This document shows positions 6,190 through 13,336 of a stretch of DNA of 13,336 nucleotides, piece by piece; positions within the stretch are counted from its first letter, which is position 1; each line of letters starts with the position of its first letter. Source of the stretch: Chlamydiales bacterium. Lineage in GTDB: Bacteria; Chlamydiota; Chlamydiia; Chlamydiales; JBDQID01. Location: positions 1 to 13,336 of the forward strand of contig JBLFWS010000094.1 of NCBI GenBank assembly GCA_047611865.1. Direction: 5' to 3'. The notes under the pieces were generated by a model that worked only from the letters and a program-made list of their open reading frames with translations, was not told the origin of the DNA and did no database searches. The position numbers and the translations under genes were made by a program.

Positions 6190-6288
6190 GCCTCTTCCTC
6201 TTTATGAAAAAACGAGTATAATAGCAGGACAAGGGGCTGATTGCCACGCTTTATTTTTGTTTTGTTAAGGTATGGAAGGGTTGTATTC

Positions 6289-7131
6289 ATGGGCATTTAT
6301 TTCAAGAGTGTCTTAAAGTTATTTATTTTTATTTTGTTTCTAAGCTCCTGTTCAGGGGGGGATCTACCAGGAATAGACAGTAGCCGTAAACAAAATGAAA
6401 AAGGGGAGTTTCTCTATCGGGAGTCCGATGAATTTTTGCATAGATTGTCTCCGCCTGAACTTCGGCAAATAGAGAAGTATCCTTGGGAGGGGAAGATGGT
6501 TGGTAACTTCCCACGGATTACGAAAGAGTTCTTCCGTTGCAAGGGGAGCTCTCTTAATCCATTGAGGGTCGAGGTGAAGGAGGATGGCGAGCTGGTGAAA
6601 TATGAGGATTGTAATGGTAGGCATAGTCTACCTCTTCATGACAGCAAGGAATTTATTTACCCCATTCTTCATGAGTTACTAAATCATGTGCAGAAGAAAA
6701 CAGGAAAGCGAGTGGTGGTCACAAGTGGGCATAGCTGTCCTAAACACAATTCGTATAGGGATCCATCTAAATATAACAGAACTTCCAAGCATATGATCGG
6801 TGCAGAGGTAGCTTTTTACCTTCAGGGAATGGAGGGGCAGCCTGAAGAGGTTGTAGAGTTGCTACGTTCGTTTTACAGTGAATCATCCTCCTATAAAGAT
6901 AAAGGGGAGTATCAGGAGTTTTCAACGTATGACGGACCAATAGATGTCCTATCTATCCCAGTGCGGAACAAGGAAGTATATATAAAGATTTTCAACAAAG
7001 AAGAGGGGCGTGACTTTGACAACCGCCATCCCTATCCTTATATCAGTGTACAGGTGCGCCATGATCGCGAGGAAGATAAAGGAGTTTTTTACACGTGGAA
7101 CAAAGCTTATAATCACTATTTTAGATATTAG
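6289..7131 (+). CDS. Conserved chlamydial hypothetical lipoprotein (CT465-like) with a degenerate peptidase-M15-like motif
   Basis: ATG 6289 follows GGAAGG and gives MGIYFKSVLKLFIFILFLSSC (signal peptide plus lipobox). Internal TSGHSCPKHN...SKHMIGAEVAF resembles M15 TSGYRCxxHN...SxHxxGxAxD. The ORF track's TTG start at 6241 is less likely. Confidence 0.7.
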   Translation: MGIYFKSVLKLFIFILFLSSCSGGDLPGIDSSRKQNEKGEFLYRESDEFLHRLSPPELRQIEKYPWEGKMVGNFPRITKEFFRCKGSSLNPLRVEVKEDGELVKYEDCNGRHSLPLHDSKEFIYPILHELLNHVQKKTGKRVVVTSGHSCPKHNSYRDPSKYNRTSKHMIGAEVAFYLQGMEGQPEEVVELLRSFYSESSSYKDKGEYQEFSTYDGPIDVLSIPVRNKEVYIKIFNKEEGRDFDNRHPYPYISVQVRHDREEDKGVFYTWNKAYNHYFRY

Positions 7132-8840
7132 GTAAAATACTGTGCAATAGGATTTTCCTTTCGAAAAAAGCATTCCTGGATTATAGTAGTGCTTCTTATT
7201 ATGCCGAAGTGGCGAAATGGTAGACGCGGTAGATTCAAAATCTGCTTCCGTTCGCGGAGTGCCGGTTCGAGTCCGGCCTTCGGCACATCACCGGAGACTT
7301 TTTCAGAAATGATTGAGTTCTCCGGTCTTTCTTTTTTTAAGTCCTTGTTTTTCTGTAAGATAAGAGCGAGTGCTGAGTTTAAGGCATCGGTTCGATATTT
7401 CCCGTCCTCAAAAGTCAGCTTAAGTGGGAAAACCGAACCAAGTAATTTTTTCTTTATTTCTAAAGAAGCTTTATCAAAGTAGTGGTCAAGATTCGCCAGG
7501 ATGTTCATTCCGAACGTGCAGTATTTCTCGAAGGCAGTGTCGGAGGCTGTGAGCTCCTGGATGGTCTGCTCATTTGTTGCGATTTCTGACAAGGTGTGAC
7601 TCTTAAGCCTTTTGTACGAATCCGCTTCTAAAGATTCTTCGACAAATCTTTGCTGATCGAACTTGAGAAGGTTTGCATTGTGTCCATGTATGAGATTTTG
7701 CAGCTTTTGGATTTGTTCCTCGCGGCAGCCTTCTTTGGCTTCGAATAACTTTTTCATCATTGCGAGGTAAAGCTCGACTACTTCTGGTGGGGACTGCAAG
7801 CCTTTTAGGAAGTCCCTGAAGGCATCATTAGCTTCAGAAGCATTTGCCCTTGCCTTACATCTATTGTCACAGTGGTAGTAGGCATATTTGCCTCCGTTGC
7901 CCCTGGAAATACTGCCGGTCCAATTTTTTTTACATTTAGGGCATAGGAGGAGCCCACGGAGAGGGAATTCTTCCCTGAGCTTTTCTTTTGTGGAAATGTG
8001 GGAATTTCTTTCTGCACGGCTATTGAGGATTTTTTGAACTCTGTAGAAGGTATCTTGGAATACTATGCCTTTGTGAATTCCTTCTACAAGTTGGCTTGGC
8101 TCATCTTTGGTTTCCGGAACAAAGATTTTACCCATATAGATTGGGTTTCGCAGCATCAATCCGAACTGAGTTCTTTGTAGACGAAGGCCCGTTTTCCAAG
8201 AAGCCTTACGAACGTCTTCGATAGCGAAGGCATTTGTAGCGAAAAGTTCGAAGGCCTCTTTGACAAGTTCCGCTTCTTCACTGTGTACAAGTAATGGTGT
8301 TTTCGATGAGCTTCGGTCTTTCTTGAACCCTTTAGGAGTTTGTCCGTACGGATAGTGGCCTTCTTTGAGAGCACGGTAGACTCCTGCCTTAGTATTACGA
8401 GCTCTGATCCTATTGTCGATTTCGGGAAGGGTCATGTGGATCATTTTGAGAAGAAGGCTTTCAGGATTGTCTGAGTCATCCTGAAAGTCAATTGACTTAA
8501 CTTCCGTACCGTATTGCTGGAGCTCCCTGCACATCATGATGGAGTTTTCTACATTGCGTGAGAACCGGCACCATTTGGTAACAAACAGATAGTCGACTTG
8601 TTTTTTGTGTCTTTGGAGATACGAGATGAGGCGTCGAAAGTTGGGGCGTTTGAAATCTTTAGCACTGAAGCCGTCATCTTCGAAATGTTCGATGACTTGG
8701 ATTCCTTGTCTGGCACATTCCTTTCGTAGGGTGTCTTCTTGATGGGGCAGGCTGAAACCTTGTTCAGCCTGTTCATCCGTTGATACTCTAGTATAGATTA
8801 CGGCAGTTTTCCGAATCTTTTTCTTGCTGAATGATTTCAT
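7128..8840 (-). CDS. Large serine recombinase/integrase (resolvase + recombinase + Zn-ribbon + coiled coil)
   Basis: IYTRVSTDEQ (catalytic Ser20 from ATG 8840), GFSAKDFKRP, KWCRFSRN, recombinase domain (PKGF...EEAELVKEAFELF...LRNPIYMG...HKGIV) and Zn ribbon (FPLRGLLLCPKC...YYHCDNRC). The ORF continues antisense through the tRNA and stops at 7128-7130. Confidence 0.93.
   Translation of the reverse strand: MKSFSKKKIRKTAVIYTRVSTDEQAEQGFSLPHQEDTLRKECARQGIQVIEHFEDDGFSAKDFKRPNFRRLISYLQRHKKQVDYLFVTKWCRFSRNVENSIMMCRELQQYGTEVKSIDFQDDSDNPESLLLKMIHMTLPEIDNRIRARNTKAGVYRALKEGHYPYGQTPKGFKKDRSSSKTPLLVHSEEAELVKEAFELFATNAFAIEDVRKASWKTGLRLQRTQFGLMLRNPIYMGKIFVPETKDEPSQLVEGIHKGIVFQDTFYRVQKILNSRAERNSHISTKEKLREEFPLRGLLLCPKCKKNWTGSISRGNGGKYAYYHCDNRCKARANASEANDAFRDFLKGLQSPPEVVELYLAMMKKLFEAKEGCREEQIQKLQNLIHGHNANLLKFDQQRFVEESLEADSYKRLKSHTLSEIATNEQTIQELTASDTAFEKYCTFGMNILANLDHYFDKASLEIKKKLLGSVFPLKLTFEDGKYRTDALNSALALILQKNKDLKKERPENSIISEKVSGDVPKAGLEPALRERKQILNLPRLPFRHFGIIRSTTIIQECFFRKENPIAQYFT
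7203..7285 (+). tRNA. tRNA-Leu(CAA)
   Basis: Acceptor GCCGAAG/CTTCGGC with discriminator A, D-arm GCGAAATGGTAGACGC, anticodon arm GTAGA-TTCAAAA-TCTGC, long variable arm TCCG-TTCG-CGGA and T-arm GCCGG-TTCGAGT-CCGGC. CCA is not encoded (followed by CAT). Confidence 0.97.
7290..7338 (+). terminator. Hairpin plus T-tract directly after the tRNA, inside the recombinase CDS on the opposite strand
   Basis: ACCGGAGA (7290-7297) pairs with TCTCCGGT (7319-7326), with an inner TCA-GAAA-TGA stem-loop, followed by CTTTCTTTTTTT. Confidence 0.65.
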
Positions 8841-9053: not shown

Positions 9054-9938
9054 TTAAGCATTGTTATTTATGTATTTTGAAACAGTTCGTTTTTTTGCAA
9101 CAACCCGGCCTTTCTTGATGTTGCTTTCGAGCTTTACATCATCGTAGTTAGTTGTGAGATCGTAATCAGAAATTGAGGCATCATTGAAATATTTAATCAT
9201 TTTCAGTTGGGATAGTCCATCTGCTGAAGTTTTGTAGACGACCAGTTGATCAAAATCTTCATTTTTGATGGCATCTACAACTTCATTTTCTTTTATGGAA
9301 ATGGAACGGGTGAGAGGTGGTTCAGCTTGGATGTCTCTTTCTAAGGTTTCATTCAGGAGGTTGTTTATATTTATAGAAATGTGGTTTAGGCATCCTGTTA
9401 TATAAGGGACTTCAATTGCCGGAATAAATTCGTTAAAGCTTAAGAATTCAGCCTGACCTTCAGGGAGAACGATAAAGTAGACTGGTTGTTTGAAAAGGAT
9501 TGCAGCAATGAAGTAATACTCGACAAAAGAGATACGGCACTTTTTTGAGATTTCTTCAAAATAGAATGGTTTGAGCTTTCCTATTGTCTCCAATGAAATT
9601 CCAAACTTTCTCAGATCTCGAATAATTTTTAACCATATACATTCGGTGACATTAAATTTTCGCCACCCTCGATTTCCCTCACGCTCACATTCGATAAGAC
9701 CTAGAGAATCCCAATGGTTCAAGACTCGTGAAGAGGTGTCACTTGGGCTTATTTTTAGGTTTCGTTTTCGAAGGTTGTCAACTAGGCGAAGTGATAATTC
9801 AGAATCTAAGATTTTTGAAAGGTTGAGGGAGAAGGTTTCTCCACGAAAGAGTGTAGGGCCTACGCTTTTACGGTTTAAAGGGTTGGGGGCTCTCTTCTTG
9901 TCTTTTAGTGAGCTTTCTGTGGTGGTAATTTTTGGCAT
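9054..9938 (-). CDS. MerR-like winged-HTH DNA-binding protein with an uncharacterised C-terminal region
   Basis: SSRVLNHWDSLGLI...GWRKFNVTECIWLKIIRDLRKFGISLETIGKL is a MerR-type HTH pattern. The ATG at 9938 has SD AAGAGGT and is preferred over the track's TTG at 9956. Confidence 0.75.
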   Translation of the reverse strand: MPKITTTESSLKDKKRAPNPLNRKSVGPTLFRGETFSLNLSKILDSELSLRLVDNLRKRNLKISPSDTSSRVLNHWDSLGLIECEREGNRGWRKFNVTECIWLKIIRDLRKFGISLETIGKLKPFYFEEISKKCRISFVEYYFIAAILFKQPVYFIVLPEGQAEFLSFNEFIPAIEVPYITGCLNHISININNLLNETLERDIQAEPPLTRSISIKENEVVDAIKNEDFDQLVVYKTSADGLSQLKMIKYFNDASISDYDLTTNYDDVKLESNIKKGRVVAKKRTVSKYINNNA

Positions 9939-9955
9939 TTGAACCTCTTTTTGCA

Positions 9956-9981
9956 AAAAACTTACATTTATGTAAGTTTTT
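9956..9981. promoter_or_regulatory. Perfect 12-bp inverted repeat, candidate operator
   Basis: AAAAACTTACAT-TT-ATGTAAGTTTTT, 17 bp upstream of the MerR-like ATG in a divergent intergenic region. Confidence 0.6.
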
Positions 9982-10210: not shown

Positions 10211-10870
10211 ATGCTATGGGAAACGAGAAGTAAAGCAGAAAAAGAGTTTAGGGAAGATTTAAAAGAGGTTTATGAAGCTCTTTCAGATGGAGTTTCGTTG
10301 TTGGATAAAGCAATTGATGAATTTGAGAGGTCTTCAGACAAGGATTTGTTTTTTCGCTTGTGTGCATTAATTTCTCTTAAATCTAAGAACTTAGTTTTGG
10401 CCTTGCTATCCCTTATAATGGAGGGGCTGGCTCAAGAGGGAGGGGCAATACTACGTCCGCTTGTAGAGTGTACAGAGATGTTAGCATATCTTCGTTTACA
10501 TTTTGATAACCTAGATGAAGTAGCCGAAAAGATTATGAACAGGAAGATTACTGCAGGAAAAATTGGAAAGGAAATTGAAGGAGACTTTAAGGACTTAAGG
10601 AAGTATTTGAATGAGAATGCATCACACCTTAGCTTGTCTTATGATAGTTTGAGACACTGTCTTGATATGAAGACTCTGAAACTAAATAAGGTTCAAAAAT
10701 TTAACAAAAAAACTTTTCTGAAGAACTTGGAACTACTCTTTTCGTTTTTAACTTTTTTATTAAAAGAGTGTTCAAATTGTCTGGAAAAATATGGTAAGGG
10801 GGACATTTTGAAAATGCGAAAAGTTGTTATGAATAAAGGAATTGAAGCTATAAGAAGTATAGATAAATGA
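10211..10870 (+). CDS. Hypothetical all-helical protein, possibly DUF5677/HEPN-like
   Basis: 219 aa with a strong SD (AAGGAGGT, 10198-10205). The patterns G..QEGGAILRPLVE......Y and RKYLNENASH recall DUF5677-type proteins. The family call is tentative. Confidence 0.55.
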   Translation: MLWETRSKAEKEFREDLKEVYEALSDGVSLLDKAIDEFERSSDKDLFFRLCALISLKSKNLVLALLSLIMEGLAQEGGAILRPLVECTEMLAYLRLHFDNLDEVAEKIMNRKITAGKIGKEIEGDFKDLRKYLNENASHLSLSYDSLRHCLDMKTLKLNKVQKFNKKTFLKNLELLFSFLTFLLKECSNCLEKYGKGDILKMRKVVMNKGIEAIRSIDK

Positions 10871-10891: not shown

Positions 10892-12130
10892 ATGGAAGTT
10901 GGGATTGAAAGAGGAGAAGAGACTGACAAGATTTTTGTAGTACTACTGTCTTTCGAGTTAAAGATACTGAAAAATGATTTGTTGGGCGTAGAAGGTGTTT
11001 TCAATTGGGTTAGCGATATATTTAGTCAAATCGGAGCTTCTTTCAATACTAATAGAACAGAAGACAACGGTAAAATCATATTATTTTACGACATCCCGAA
11101 AATTGAGGGGACTTATGACAAAATTGAAATGAGGGGAAAAAAACTGAAAGAGAAGATTGAAAACTGTAAGATTAGAATGTTTTCTACTTGGGATAGTACC
11201 ATATGGAAACGTTCTGGAGCGATACCTGAGGAGGATGAAGATCATGTTGATCGAATCACTAGCCAGGAGGATTACAGAGACCGTGAAACAAGAGAAAGTG
11301 CGCTTGATGAAATATTCGAAGAATTCAAAACTTGTTTCAAAGAAATTAACGATAGGTTTCCAGATCAACGTATTGAAAAAGATGATACAGAGATTTCAGT
11401 GGAATTAGATCCAAACCTTGTGGATCAGATTCAGCAGTTTGAAGGTTTGTTAGGCAATGCTTGGCTAGAAAAAAGTGAGGAAAGTGGTGAAAAGGGTAAT
11501 CCGTTACCTGATTATTTGAAACGAATTGATGTGCAAAAGTTTTATGAGCTTTTGCTAGAAAATAAAGGAGATACAAGGGAAATACACGAATCTTTGATTC
11601 ACACCCTTTTTGATATCAAAATGCAGCTATTTTTTATCCTTGAAGTGGAAATGCGTAGTTATAATCGAATACTTCAAGAAATTAAATCGTTAGCGGACCT
11701 AAAAAAGAAGCCCTATTTGGCATTAAGGAAGCTCTCTATAGATCAAAGCTTAATAGTGAAAAACCGGATTCTTTGGGAACGAGTAATGAACTTTGTTTAC
11801 TGCTTGGGAAATGAAGTGAAAGAATTTAAGGTAAGTAAAGGGGGGTCAAAACTTGGTAAATTTTTTGAAAAAATTAAGGGAACAAGGTGGGAATTTTTGA
11901 AATTCTATAAGTCATTGGCTGAGAATTTGAATAACAGATGGAGAACAGGTGAGGTTCACAAGGGTTCTGTTTTGAGAGGCATCTTTATTAGAGGGAGAGT
12001 TGCAGATTTTTATGAAATTAACGAGATTACCAATGTTGTCCTCGCAGTTCTTTGGCCTAATTTACTCCTAATTCTGCAAGGAGGAAATCCTCAAATACCT
12101 TATGTGTCGACTTCAGGGTATCGCAGGTAA
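10892..12130 (+). CDS. Hypothetical protein with a C-terminal HEPN-like domain
   Basis: 412 aa with SD-like GAGGG at 10883-10887. The helical C-terminal half has RILWERVMNFVY and an R-x4-H motif, RTGEVH (11942-11959). Confidence 0.6.
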   Translation: MEVGIERGEETDKIFVVLLSFELKILKNDLLGVEGVFNWVSDIFSQIGASFNTNRTEDNGKIILFYDIPKIEGTYDKIEMRGKKLKEKIENCKIRMFSTWDSTIWKRSGAIPEEDEDHVDRITSQEDYRDRETRESALDEIFEEFKTCFKEINDRFPDQRIEKDDTEISVELDPNLVDQIQQFEGLLGNAWLEKSEESGEKGNPLPDYLKRIDVQKFYELLLENKGDTREIHESLIHTLFDIKMQLFFILEVEMRSYNRILQEIKSLADLKKKPYLALRKLSIDQSLIVKNRILWERVMNFVYCLGNEVKEFKVSKGGSKLGKFFEKIKGTRWEFLKFYKSLAENLNNRWRTGEVHKGSVLRGIFIRGRVADFYEINEITNVVLAVLWPNLLLILQGGNPQIPYVSTSGYRR

Positions 12131-12302: not shown

Positions 12303-13336
12303 CTAGCGTTTCATGTAAGCAGTTTTTTTAGGAAAAAAGGGATCTTCTGGGCAAACAGCGAAGCTAACGATAATGTCTGGTTTAAGGTCTTTTGCTTTTT
12401 CGTCTAGGTAGAAAAGAAGGTGCTTTTCAACATTTTCTAGAGGCATATCATTGACACAGACGGCCATTAGAAGTTTGTTTTCCTTCATGATTGACACTAC
12501 TCTTGCTTGTTCAGGTTCTAATTGTGTGGTTTTAAATTCCAAGAGCTTTTTATGTAGTTGATGGAGAGCATCTAGGCCAAATTGGACCAGTTCCGTTGCT
12601 ATGAAGTGGCAGATAGGGTCTTCGTCTGATTTTAAGCTGCTTATAATATTTTGAATGCCAATGGGTAAATTCAGTTTAGCTTTTTGATTTTCTTCATTAA
12701 AAGAATTTTGGAAATCGTCGATTAGAATCAAATTACCTTCATCATGTAATTCCCCATCAAAAAGTCCCAAATTCCAAGAGTCAAAGAAATCCAATTCATC
12801 TGTTGTATGAATGTGAGCAGGAGAGCAAACGAGATTAGATTTTTCTATTAAATAGGAAAGAAGTATTTCAGGCTGCTTATGACATCGCTCTAGAATAATT
12901 TCGAAGTCAAATATATTACTTATAATGGGGTAGTCTGTTTCGCGGATAACTCCAAATTTTTTCAAAGGTGAAACGTCGCAGATTAGAGAATGCAGAGGCT
13001 TTAATGTAATAGCCAGAAGTATGATGCGCAATGGTTTATCGATTTCAATATTATTTGTACCAGTTTCACTTTTAATGGAAAAAATTGGTTTTTCTGAATT
13101 TGTGAAATACTTTTCGGCTCTTTCTCCTTGTCTCCAAGCCTCACGAATTACTTTTGTTAGATGCTTGCGTATTCTTTTTTTGTTGGGTTTGGTAGATTCC
13201 GAATTTTTTAGTTTCAGAGCAATTGAGTTCCAGTCAATTTGACCAGCCTTTGCTTCAGTACATATTAAGGTGTTCCCCCAATGGATTAGAACATCGAGCT
13301 CCGCAGTACTATTTGGTTTTTCAGGGTCAGGATATG
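12303..13336 (-). CDS. NERD/PD-(D/E)xK nuclease-like protein, 5' end beyond the window
   Basis: The frame stays open from the track's 13031 start to the window edge: YPDPEKPNSTAELDVLIHWGNTLICTEAKAGQ...IREAWRQGERAEKYF...IILLAITL...DELDFF. ELD...EAK plus a downstream Q...Y helix is the NERD-type pattern. Confidence 0.7.
   Translation of the reverse strand, partial: YPDPEKPNSTAELDVLIHWGNTLICTEAKAGQIDWNSIALKLKNSESTKPNKKRIRKHLTKVIREAWRQGERAEKYFTNSEKPIFSIKSETGTNNIEIDKPLRIILLAITLKPLHSLICDVSPLKKFGVIRETDYPIISNIFDFEIILERCHKQPEILLSYLIEKSNLVCSPAHIHTTDELDFFDSWNLGLFDGELHDEGNLILIDDFQNSFNEENQKAKLNLPIGIQNIISSLKSDEDPICHFIATELVQFGLDALHQLHKKLLEFKTTQLEPEQARVVSIMKENKLLMAVCVNDMPLENVEKHLLFYLDEKAKDLKPDIIVSFAVCPEDPFFPKKTAYMKR

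Follow-up and report, generated by a model that had tools for sequence, protein, structure and literature searches.

A serine-integrase gene that reads through its probable target tRNA gene, and a family of relatives in which the attachment site probably lies within int

A 13,336-nt stretch of Chlamydiales DNA (the window) carries the gene for a large serine recombinase (LSR; the integrase, gene int) whose open reading frame (ORF) enters an opposite-strand tRNA-Leu(CAA) gene, crosses all of it and closes in the DNA beyond. The window very probably represents the integrase-proximal junction of a genomic island that was inserted by this LSR at the 3' end of tRNA-Leu(CAA), with the attachment site of the element (attP) situated inside int.

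The integrase ORF encodes 572 residues, and alignment with homologues placed the probable start at the ATG at 8840, two codons inside the ORF, where the homologues begin. A sequence-only reading of the window had claimed that the integrase has no stop before the tRNA, that its last 52 residues are antisense to tRNA-Leu and the upstream flank, and that its stop overlaps the stop of a convergent host gene, and each of these statements held. The first stop in the 572-residue ORF is the TAA at 7128–7130. Comparison of the translation with the ARAGORN prediction showed that residues V521–T572 are encoded by 7286..7131 (52 codons, antisense), with the 28 codons for residues 521–548 lying antisense to the entire tRNA-Leu(CAA) and the rest falling in the host flank. 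The sequence TTAG at 7128–7131 is shared between the integrase TAA and the TAG of the convergent plus-strand ORF (Table 1). The integrase therefore stops 47 codons past the codon of a conserved glycine, Gly525. When up to three mismatches were allowed, the tRNA's 3' end had no second copy in the window, the sole match being the tRNA itself; the far end of the element falls past base 13336.

The domain content and predicted fold identify the protein as a large serine recombinase. Pfam matches were obtained to Resolvase, the N-terminal catalytic domain with the nucleophilic serine, on residues 15–164 (E 2.9e-29), to Recombinase on residues 190–277 and to Zn_ribbon_recom on residues 295–330, and the top match in the PHROG database was an integrase family. 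In an alignment of 20 sequences, the Y-x-R-V-S-T block (Y18, R20, V21, S22 and T23) occurred without variation in 20/20, and the zinc-ribbon residues Cys302, Cys305, Cys326 and Cys330 were likewise invariant. The AlphaFold model, made with the 20-sequence alignment, contains long helices at residues 354–434, which correspond to the coiled-coil insertion. The modeled fold ends near residue 501; residues 502–572 have a predicted local distance difference test (pLDDT) score below 50, and this tail is predicted to be disordered.

The 120 best database homologues of the integrase, 36–68% identical where full-length, were sorted by their C-termini. The sequence-only reading had predicted homologues ending in antisense T-arm peptides followed by unrelated tails, and such proteins were found: 89 of the 120 carry the peptide V/A-x-x-x-G-[LIVF]-[EK]-P in the main frame and then unrelated short tails, and a further six carry antisense tRNA read in a different frame. 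Five homologues continue into a common peptide with LSNQF or a near variant, six stop after ...GQL or ...RQL, another six have other tail types and eight are C-terminally incomplete. Tails unrelated to tRNA, referred to here as attP-type tails, were found in 11 of the 120; six of the attP-type proteins end three residues past the part shared by the family.

The genomic setting was then surveyed in one genome per species, which gave 79 loci at 31–61% identity, mostly from Bacteroidota genomes and metagenome-assembled genomes (MAGs). Together with a second gene in locus L047 and the window, 81 LSR genes were examined. The ORF overlaps a complete opposite-strand tRNA, with the 3' ends facing, in 62 of these; the stop lies within the tRNA in 44 of the 62 and past it in 18, the window included. 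The overlapped tRNAs comprise 21 anticodon types, with Arg, Leu and Asn the commonest. A complete tRNA was lacking for 12 of the 81 genes. Eight of these 12 read into a tRNA 3' fragment (L004, L010, L016, the first L047 gene, L051, L070, L076 and L079), and L030, L038, L042 and L057 form a subgroup that ends earlier, without a tRNA. Contigs end at the site for five genes, which were not classifiable. The ORF stops before the tRNA in only two cases, L032 and L064, and L064, counted in this class, reads a tRNA-Met-like remnant 75 nt ahead of the real tRNA-Met.

The frequency with which the ORF enters the tRNA far exceeds chance, because 62 of the 64 genes with a complete adjacent tRNA run into that tRNA and because the 60 nt ahead of the tRNA contain no in-frame stop in any of the 62 (0/62), compared with stops in 29/62 and 53/62 for the other two frames. 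The frame relative to the T-loop is identical in 55 of the 62 genes. The overlap is thus a family-wide trait and not the product of a lost stop. In contrast, the length of the read-through past the tRNA is not beyond chance: the median distance from the T-loop to the first stop is 9.7 codons in the integrase frame versus 11 and 17.3 codons in the other frames, so tail length looks unselected. Integrated tails span 0 to ~125 codons, and the stop stands at the very edge of the tRNA in L034, L050 and L075. An ssrA-like (-LAA-like) end was absent from every listed tail.

Some features of individual loci stand apart from these counts. Five loci (L001, L006, L044, L047 and L066) come from MAGs labeled Verrucomicrobiota, Parachlamydiales, Bacillota, Planctomycetota or Hydrocarboniphaga, while nearly all others are Bacteroidota; the odd labels could reflect mis-binning or a wider host range, and the two closest relatives of the window, L001 (61%) and L006 (41%), are among them. 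The integrases of L064 (7546–7610) and L051 (~11515–11590) read a tRNA-Met-like remnant with a GC-rich hairpin in place of part of the anticodon arm and with the D-arm missing; in L064 the intact tRNA-Met lies 75 nt past the remnant, behind a hairpin of its own. When the integrase served as a tblastn query, 50,697 phage records and 72,556 plasmid records yielded only distant serine integrases (<27% identity) and no relative in the attP form.

Direct repeats were sought in the 10-kb flanks of the 79 loci (at least 14 nt exact, and 16 nt with one mismatch), and were found only in L047, L064 and L070, apart from unrelated repeats in L048 and L058. L047 contains a complete 7.6-kb LSR element (6751–14335) between 19-bp direct repeats at 6732–6750 and 14317–14335. 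Its second integrase (12773–14359) reads into a complete tRNA-Glu(TTC), and its first integrase (to 6894) reads a 19-nt copy of the tRNA 3' end and then unrelated DNA, which is the left end of the next element. The two integrases are 42% identical and cross the repeat in the same frame, and their alignment stops exactly at ...LVTPRG. Past this point, the integrated form continues as LEPLLQE and a stop, and the other as a 47-residue tail taken from the left end of its neighbor. The tail of the first integrase is what the second would read from its own excised circle, so both forms can be seen without any joining of sequences. The L047 element also encodes a HerA-like/DUF87 ATPase (625 residues), together with a DUF488 protein that has an antitoxin-like SocA_Panacea domain, which suggests a small defense or toxin–antitoxin cargo. 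A second array was recognized in L016 and L026, which overlap each other on a single contig; the two elements that it carries are separated by 14.7 kb. These elements have 4.3 kb in common at 91.6% identity, ending inside the T-loop, and their tails differ thereafter. In both tandem arrays the duplicated segment is the tRNA 3' end only, the tails differ between the joint types and the complete tRNA stands at the host end.

Other tRNA fragments in the collection belong to a different kind of element. In L004, L010, L070, L076 and L079, a Bacteroidota-type tyrosine integrase (Arm-DNA-bind_5, SAM_5 and Phage_integrase domains) lies ~100–250 nt past the tRNA fragment, and such elements leave tRNA 3' fragments of 15 to ~55 nt; these tRNAs appear as shared hot spots with mixed arrays. 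Because the arrays are mixed, the fragment lengths in these five loci are uninformative about the serine enzyme. L070 was rejected as crossover evidence since the integrase of its neighboring element is of the tyrosine type, and the fragments in L004, L010, L076 and L079 were rejected because a tyrosine integrase follows.

The position of the crossover was examined in 65 junctions anchored at the top of the acceptor stem. The conserved element arm consists of an A-run, a long hairpin, a few bases and the tRNA end. A GTCC in this arm and its complement at the edge of the T-stem and T-loop are symmetric about acceptor nt 72|71, and the element site of L047 is symmetric in the same way. A T-loop-like heptamer in the far arm of the L047 element lies 5 bp further from the center than the real T-loop of the tRNA, and the S-N codons of all six LSNQF-type tails occupy the position of this heptamer, seven codons past the discriminator codon. 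Location of the motif for the zinc-ribbon domain 5 bp further out in attP than in the chromosomal site, attB, is described as a hallmark of serine-integrase sites in a report on the LI integrase (PMC3783163); the outward displacement of the T-loop-like motif on the element side in L047 and the codon positions in the six tails fit this offset, and L016/L026 fit it in part, with a shift of 4 bp. Several attP-type tails depart from the tRNA antisense as soon as its second codon has been read, and divergence follows after codon +2 to +4. Given the dyad in the 65 junctions and the early divergence of the attP-type tails, the crossover probably falls at the 3' extremity of the tRNA, at acceptor nt ~71–73. 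The right-hand edges of the repeats would by themselves suggest a position in the T-loop, a placement rejected in view of the dyad and of how early the tails diverge. The sequence-only reading had located attP inside the int 3' end, giving tails that differ with the state of the element, and had supposed that the element carries the 3' part of the tRNA. The former is seen in the relatives L047 and L016/L026 and is probable for the element of the window by comparison with them. The latter needs narrowing: the discriminator, trailer and terminator appear to be carried by the element, but not the whole T-arm.

The trailer of tRNA-Leu(CAA) folds into a hairpin followed by a T-rich run, which is likely to be an element-borne terminator for the tRNA. 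A simple terminator scan passed over this hairpin, whose loop is larger than the limit of the scan. The hairpin sits inside the integrase ORF, and its antisense corresponds to integrase residues ~504–520 (KKERPENSIISEKVSGD). Folded singly, the trailers of 60/60 relatives each form a hairpin of 8–18 bp (median −20.2 kcal/mol), with at least five T in the next 9 nt in 46 of the 60. RNAalifold found no consensus on the ungapped trailers because stem lengths vary between the sequences. Among the 65 anchored junctions the hairpin is often built on GGGACAAA...TTTGTCCC, and stems elsewhere covary. The same GGGACAAA...TTTGTCCC stem occurs in many Flavobacteriia and Chitinophagia loci, and the hairpin is unusually long for a terminator. 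As it stands within reach of the element-side half-site of the integrase, the trailer hairpin may do more than terminate transcription. Read in the sense of the integrase, the T-run that belongs to the terminator becomes an A-run (7331–7337), and slippage there would alter the entire tail; P0007, compared with P0004, is a frameshift variant from exactly this point.

Collectively, these results suggest a model in which the attachment site of the element overlaps the 3' end of the integrase gene throughout this LSR clade. The element arm of attP would be made up of the long hairpin of the terminator, a small number of trailer bases and the final bases of the tRNA, which in antisense would encode the C-terminal 20–25 residues of the integrase. 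Recombination would occur near the top of the acceptor 3' strand, so that the host would retain nearly the whole tRNA and the element would bring the discriminator, the trailer and a strong terminator. Integration would fuse the int ORF to the antisense of the host tRNA and its upstream DNA, with translation ending at the first chance stop, and excision would reconnect the ORF with the far end of the element. For the window, residues up to about Gly525 would be element-encoded in both states and the following 47 would be host-encoded; strictly, only V521–P522 would be reliable, because other attP-type tails diverge there. The closest subgroup to the window integrase shares the context ...SGDVP... 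and includes proteins that stop after ...GQL, for example P0019 (50% identity). On the analogy of these ...SGDVPxxGQL-stop relatives, the excised form of the window integrase is probably ~528 residues long. The most economical reading of the integrated-form tail is that it is a tolerated, disordered by-product of the placement of attP within the gene.

Several considerations weigh against this interpretation. The far end of the window element lies outside the window, so the account of its attP and of its excised-form tail draws on relatives. Placement of the crossover draws on symmetry and on one clean LSR–LSR array, L047; in L016/L026 the displaced motif fits a shift of 4 bp and not 5, and only half of it agrees. 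The genes counted are related to one another and thus not independent, and since the seven off-frame cases fall in a few subclades, the value of 55/62 exaggerates how many independent events there were. MAG contigs make up most of the loci, and repeats flanked by tRNA can be misassembled in them. The 11 attP-type tails are known from proteins alone, and their source may be circles, tandem arrays or something else. Finally, if the tail were purely a by-product, one would not expect the frame to be conserved or the ORF to stay open as far as the joint.

These last two properties are among the points in favor of an alternative in which the exchange of tails is a functional switch. According to this proposal, a defined C-terminus in the excised form is replaced on integration by an arbitrary disordered extension that alters activity, stability or directionality. 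In some lineages the excised C-terminus would be a conserved helix with LSNQF, acidic and Leu residues, whereas in others the ORF would close directly after ...GQL, and the system would be the serine-integrase counterpart of IntP/IntX of myxophage Mx8, marking the integration state. The proposal survives better than the other rivals but is doubtful. In its favor, the frame across the joint is kept (55/62) and the ORF is never closed before it (0/62; for the two other frames, 29/62 and 53/62), and integration of Mx8 is reported to give its int a new 3' end and to alter the properties of the integrase (review PMC6070905). Six attP-type tails share 18–50% identity over their first 17–20 residues, with bodies that are 36–47% identical (one pair, 84%), and the conserved part of the LSNQF tails reaches past the ~25-bp half-site. 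The L047 tail has two predicted helices (524–539 and 547–564) in the AlphaFold model, but at a pLDDT of only 47–64. A 95-residue ORF elsewhere, P0122, has 70% identity to the L047 tail over 43 residues; its copy of the tail is preceded by unrelated sequence, and the ORF has the look of an orphan 3' fragment of int, annotated by a gene call that spans the junction at the far end of an integrated element. A phmmer search of the L047 tail against 1.84 billion representatives gave one true match and two low-complexity false matches, and a word-based search returned the query itself only.

Other features argue against a switch. The integrated tails, at 0 to ~125 codons, are neither longer nor shorter than control frames, and they are arbitrary in sequence and predicted to be disordered. 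Natural variants stop at the tRNA edge (L034, L050 and L075), no tail has an ssrA-like end, and the six attP-type proteins that end after three residues indicate that not every such protein has a long tail. At the DNA level, the S-N-Q in the conserved motif can be explained as an integrase-binding motif. P0095 and P0101 are 84% identical in the body, yet share only 6 of 17 tail residues. The more specific suggestion, that the two covalently different integrase forms report the state of the element and tune stability or the balance of integration and excision as a built-in memory of directionality, is marginally less likely again.

It is improbable that the tail is never made. This would require the int mRNA to end at or before the convergent tRNA gene, leaving a stop-less message whose product would be tagged and degraded and thereby lowering the integrase level in the integrated state regardless of tail sequence. 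The int gene is indeed transcribed head-on to the tRNA gene, and 18 of the 62 relatives have no stop until past the whole tRNA. In the int direction, moreover, the hairpin is preceded by an A-run and not followed by a U-run, so it is not a terminator for int. Against this, the stop falls within the tRNA in 44 of the 62 ORFs, and the scheme is purely conjectural.

There is very little to recommend the view that the tRNA is cargo of the element, or a mere neighbor, and that the recombinase acts at a site elsewhere. It could appeal to the absence of the far end of the element from the window and to the five loci without an overlapping tRNA (L030, L038, L042, L057 and L032). However, the 5' side of the tRNA is abutted by housekeeping genes (ispD, truA and a HAD hydrolase), the arrays repeat only the 3'-terminal 19 nt of the tRNA and have the complete tRNA at the host end, 21 tRNA types show always the same geometry, and tyrosine-integrase elements are inserted in the same tRNAs beside LSR elements. 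Least credible of all is an accident of one sequence, through a lost stop or an error of sequencing or assembly, with the real integrase ending before the tRNA: the folded domains do end near residue 501 and the A-run with which the tail begins is prone to slippage, P0007 being a frameshift variant from there on, but the same architecture recurs in 62/64 relatives with a complete adjacent tRNA and in 95/120 database homologues, and the 62 overlapping genes have no stop in the 60 nt before the tRNA.

The integrase of the window and its relatives can be compared with several known systems. The large serine recombinases phiC31, Bxb1, A118/LI, SPbeta, TnpX and CcrAB have the same three-domain build with a long coiled-coil insertion, and enzymes such as the LI integrase use, as is probable here, short dyad-symmetric att sites with the element-side motif 5 bp further out. 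They differ from the present clade in that its targets are tRNA 3' ends (21 anticodon types in the sample) and its att site and terminator hairpin are inside the integrase's own ORF. According to a passage of the Islander paper, tRNA genes are not among the known targets of serine integrases (PMC4383910), sections of a study of mycobacteriophages describe the use of tRNA sites by tyrosine integrases (PMC9262239), and an excerpt from a 2026 provirus survey reports that tyrosine integrases prefer RNA loci as targets (PMC13626063). Elsewhere, extracts on Elizabethkingia type II integrative and conjugative elements (ICEs) at tRNA-Leu-CAA mention serine recombinases in two strains and say that no integrase was found in others (bioRxiv 402107, PMC13019914), and part of a report on Prochlorococcus gives a large serine recombinase in 27 of 937 tRNA-associated elements (bioRxiv 2020.12.28.424599). 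No description of a tRNA-targeting serine integrase clade, or of a serine-integrase ORF crossing attP, was found in the literature, although the TIGER/Islander data and bioRxiv supplements may hold cases; tRNA-targeting serine integrases with attP in int are thus apparently undescribed so far.

The tRNA islands of tyrosine integrases (Islander/TIGER, NBU-like and other Bacteroidota elements) share with these loci an int gene beside an intact tRNA, a restored 3' end and tandem arrays. The Islander-type feature of an integrase gene adjoining an intact tRNA at the island end is present in the window and in 62/81 genes, and the corresponding displaced tRNA 3' fragment at the other end is present in L047, where the 19-bp repeats are 7.6 kb apart. 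The enzyme family differs, and the segment duplicated here, 19 bp long in L047, is very short and sits at the 3' extremity. In archaeal integrases of the SSV1 type, the att site lies within the integrase gene, which is split in two and inactivated as a unit; here only a noncatalytic tail, beyond the predicted fold, would be exchanged. The target of Mx8 is a tRNA-Asp locus. Its IntP/IntX system has the same layout, with the att site within the int coding sequence, as is seen in L047 and L016/L026 and is probable for the window. Mx8 Int is a tyrosine recombinase, whereas the domains found here are those of a serine recombinase, giving an Mx8-like layout but not a member of that group. According to a passage of a review, the attP of Mx8 lies within int, and integration makes a recombinant gene with a new 3' end, the prophage form of which has altered activity (PMC6070905). 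Parts of the literature on integration-dependent immunity in mycobacteriophages describe attP in the repressor gene, a tRNA target and ssrA-like C-terminal degradation tags (PMC9262239). That system shares with this one an ORF across attP at a tRNA target and a C-terminus changed by integration. It differs in that a repressor is rewritten there, with a tyrosine integrase and degradation tags, whereas here the integrase itself would be altered and no tag was found in any tail.

For the insertion of large DNA into genomes, serine integrases are the principal tools, and the sites that they use in nature are generally described as lying inside protein-coding genes. A clade of LSRs recognizing tRNA 3' ends would contradict the statement that only tyrosine integrases target tRNA genes. 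It would also provide a natural series of enzymes that share one scaffold but have changed specificity between tRNA types, at least 21 in number, with the T-arm as the shared part of the site and the acceptor stem as the variable part, and would be useful for reprogramming studies. Serine integrases are otherwise thought to depend on separate directionality factors, and if the exchange of tails proved functional, it would represent a new means of controlling their directionality. In practical terms, gene callers faced with an ORF that crosses attP report integrases with spurious host-encoded tails, and island finders that pair tRNA fragments with tyrosine integrases alone will miss or mis-type such islands. 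The ICEs at tRNA-Leu-CAA that are reported, in the parts cited, without an integrase (bioRxiv 402107, PMC13019914) offer an example.

Table 1. Positions of the integrase gene, its probable tRNA target and other features of the window
Feature	Position	Strand	Basis
Convergent host ORF; weak Peptidase_M15_3 match under the Pfam cut-off	6241..7131	+	ORF list, Pfam
Large serine recombinase (integrase) ORF, 572 residues	7128..8846	-	ORF list, translation, Pfam
Host flank upstream of the tRNA, read as integrase residues 549–572 (24 codons, 72 nt)	7131..7202	-	Translation
tRNA-Leu(CAA), probable integration target	7203..7286	+	ARAGORN; sole tRNA of the window
Putative crossover region, top of acceptor 3' strand and discriminator (tRNA nt ~71–73); host to the left, element to the right	7283..7285		Dyad, L047, tail divergence
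Hairpin 7290–7326 (−18.4 kcal/mol, z −2.6) followed by a T-rich run; likely tRNA terminator	7290..7337	+	Folding
300-residue protein with MerR-type helix-turn-helix, directly upstream of int	9054..9956	-	Pfam MerR_1, E 1.2e-8
Element interior ORF without family match	10211..10870	+	
Element interior ORF without family match	10892..12130	+	
Element interior ORF without family match, open at window end	12303..13334	-	

The genes to the left of the tRNA are ordinary chromosomal genes by their Pfam matches and encode IspD, a TruA-type pseudouridine synthase, a HAD hydrolase, a metallophosphoesterase and a UGP3-like protein. Tandem repeats that overlap a tRNA gene were noted at one of the surveyed sites: L048 (11599–11787) contains 81-nt repeats whose start lies in the 5' portion of tRNA-Asn and which run on upstream of it; offset by 81 nt, the sequence matches itself exactly over 108 nt. 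To the right of int in the window, the element ORFs other than that of the MerR-like protein had no family match in Pfam, PHROG or NCBIfam. Relatives of the MerR-like protein were found by tblastn just upstream of int in 10 loci (L001, L002, L004, L006, L008, L014, L024, L039, L052 and L077), and this protein is a candidate regulator or directionality factor of the element.

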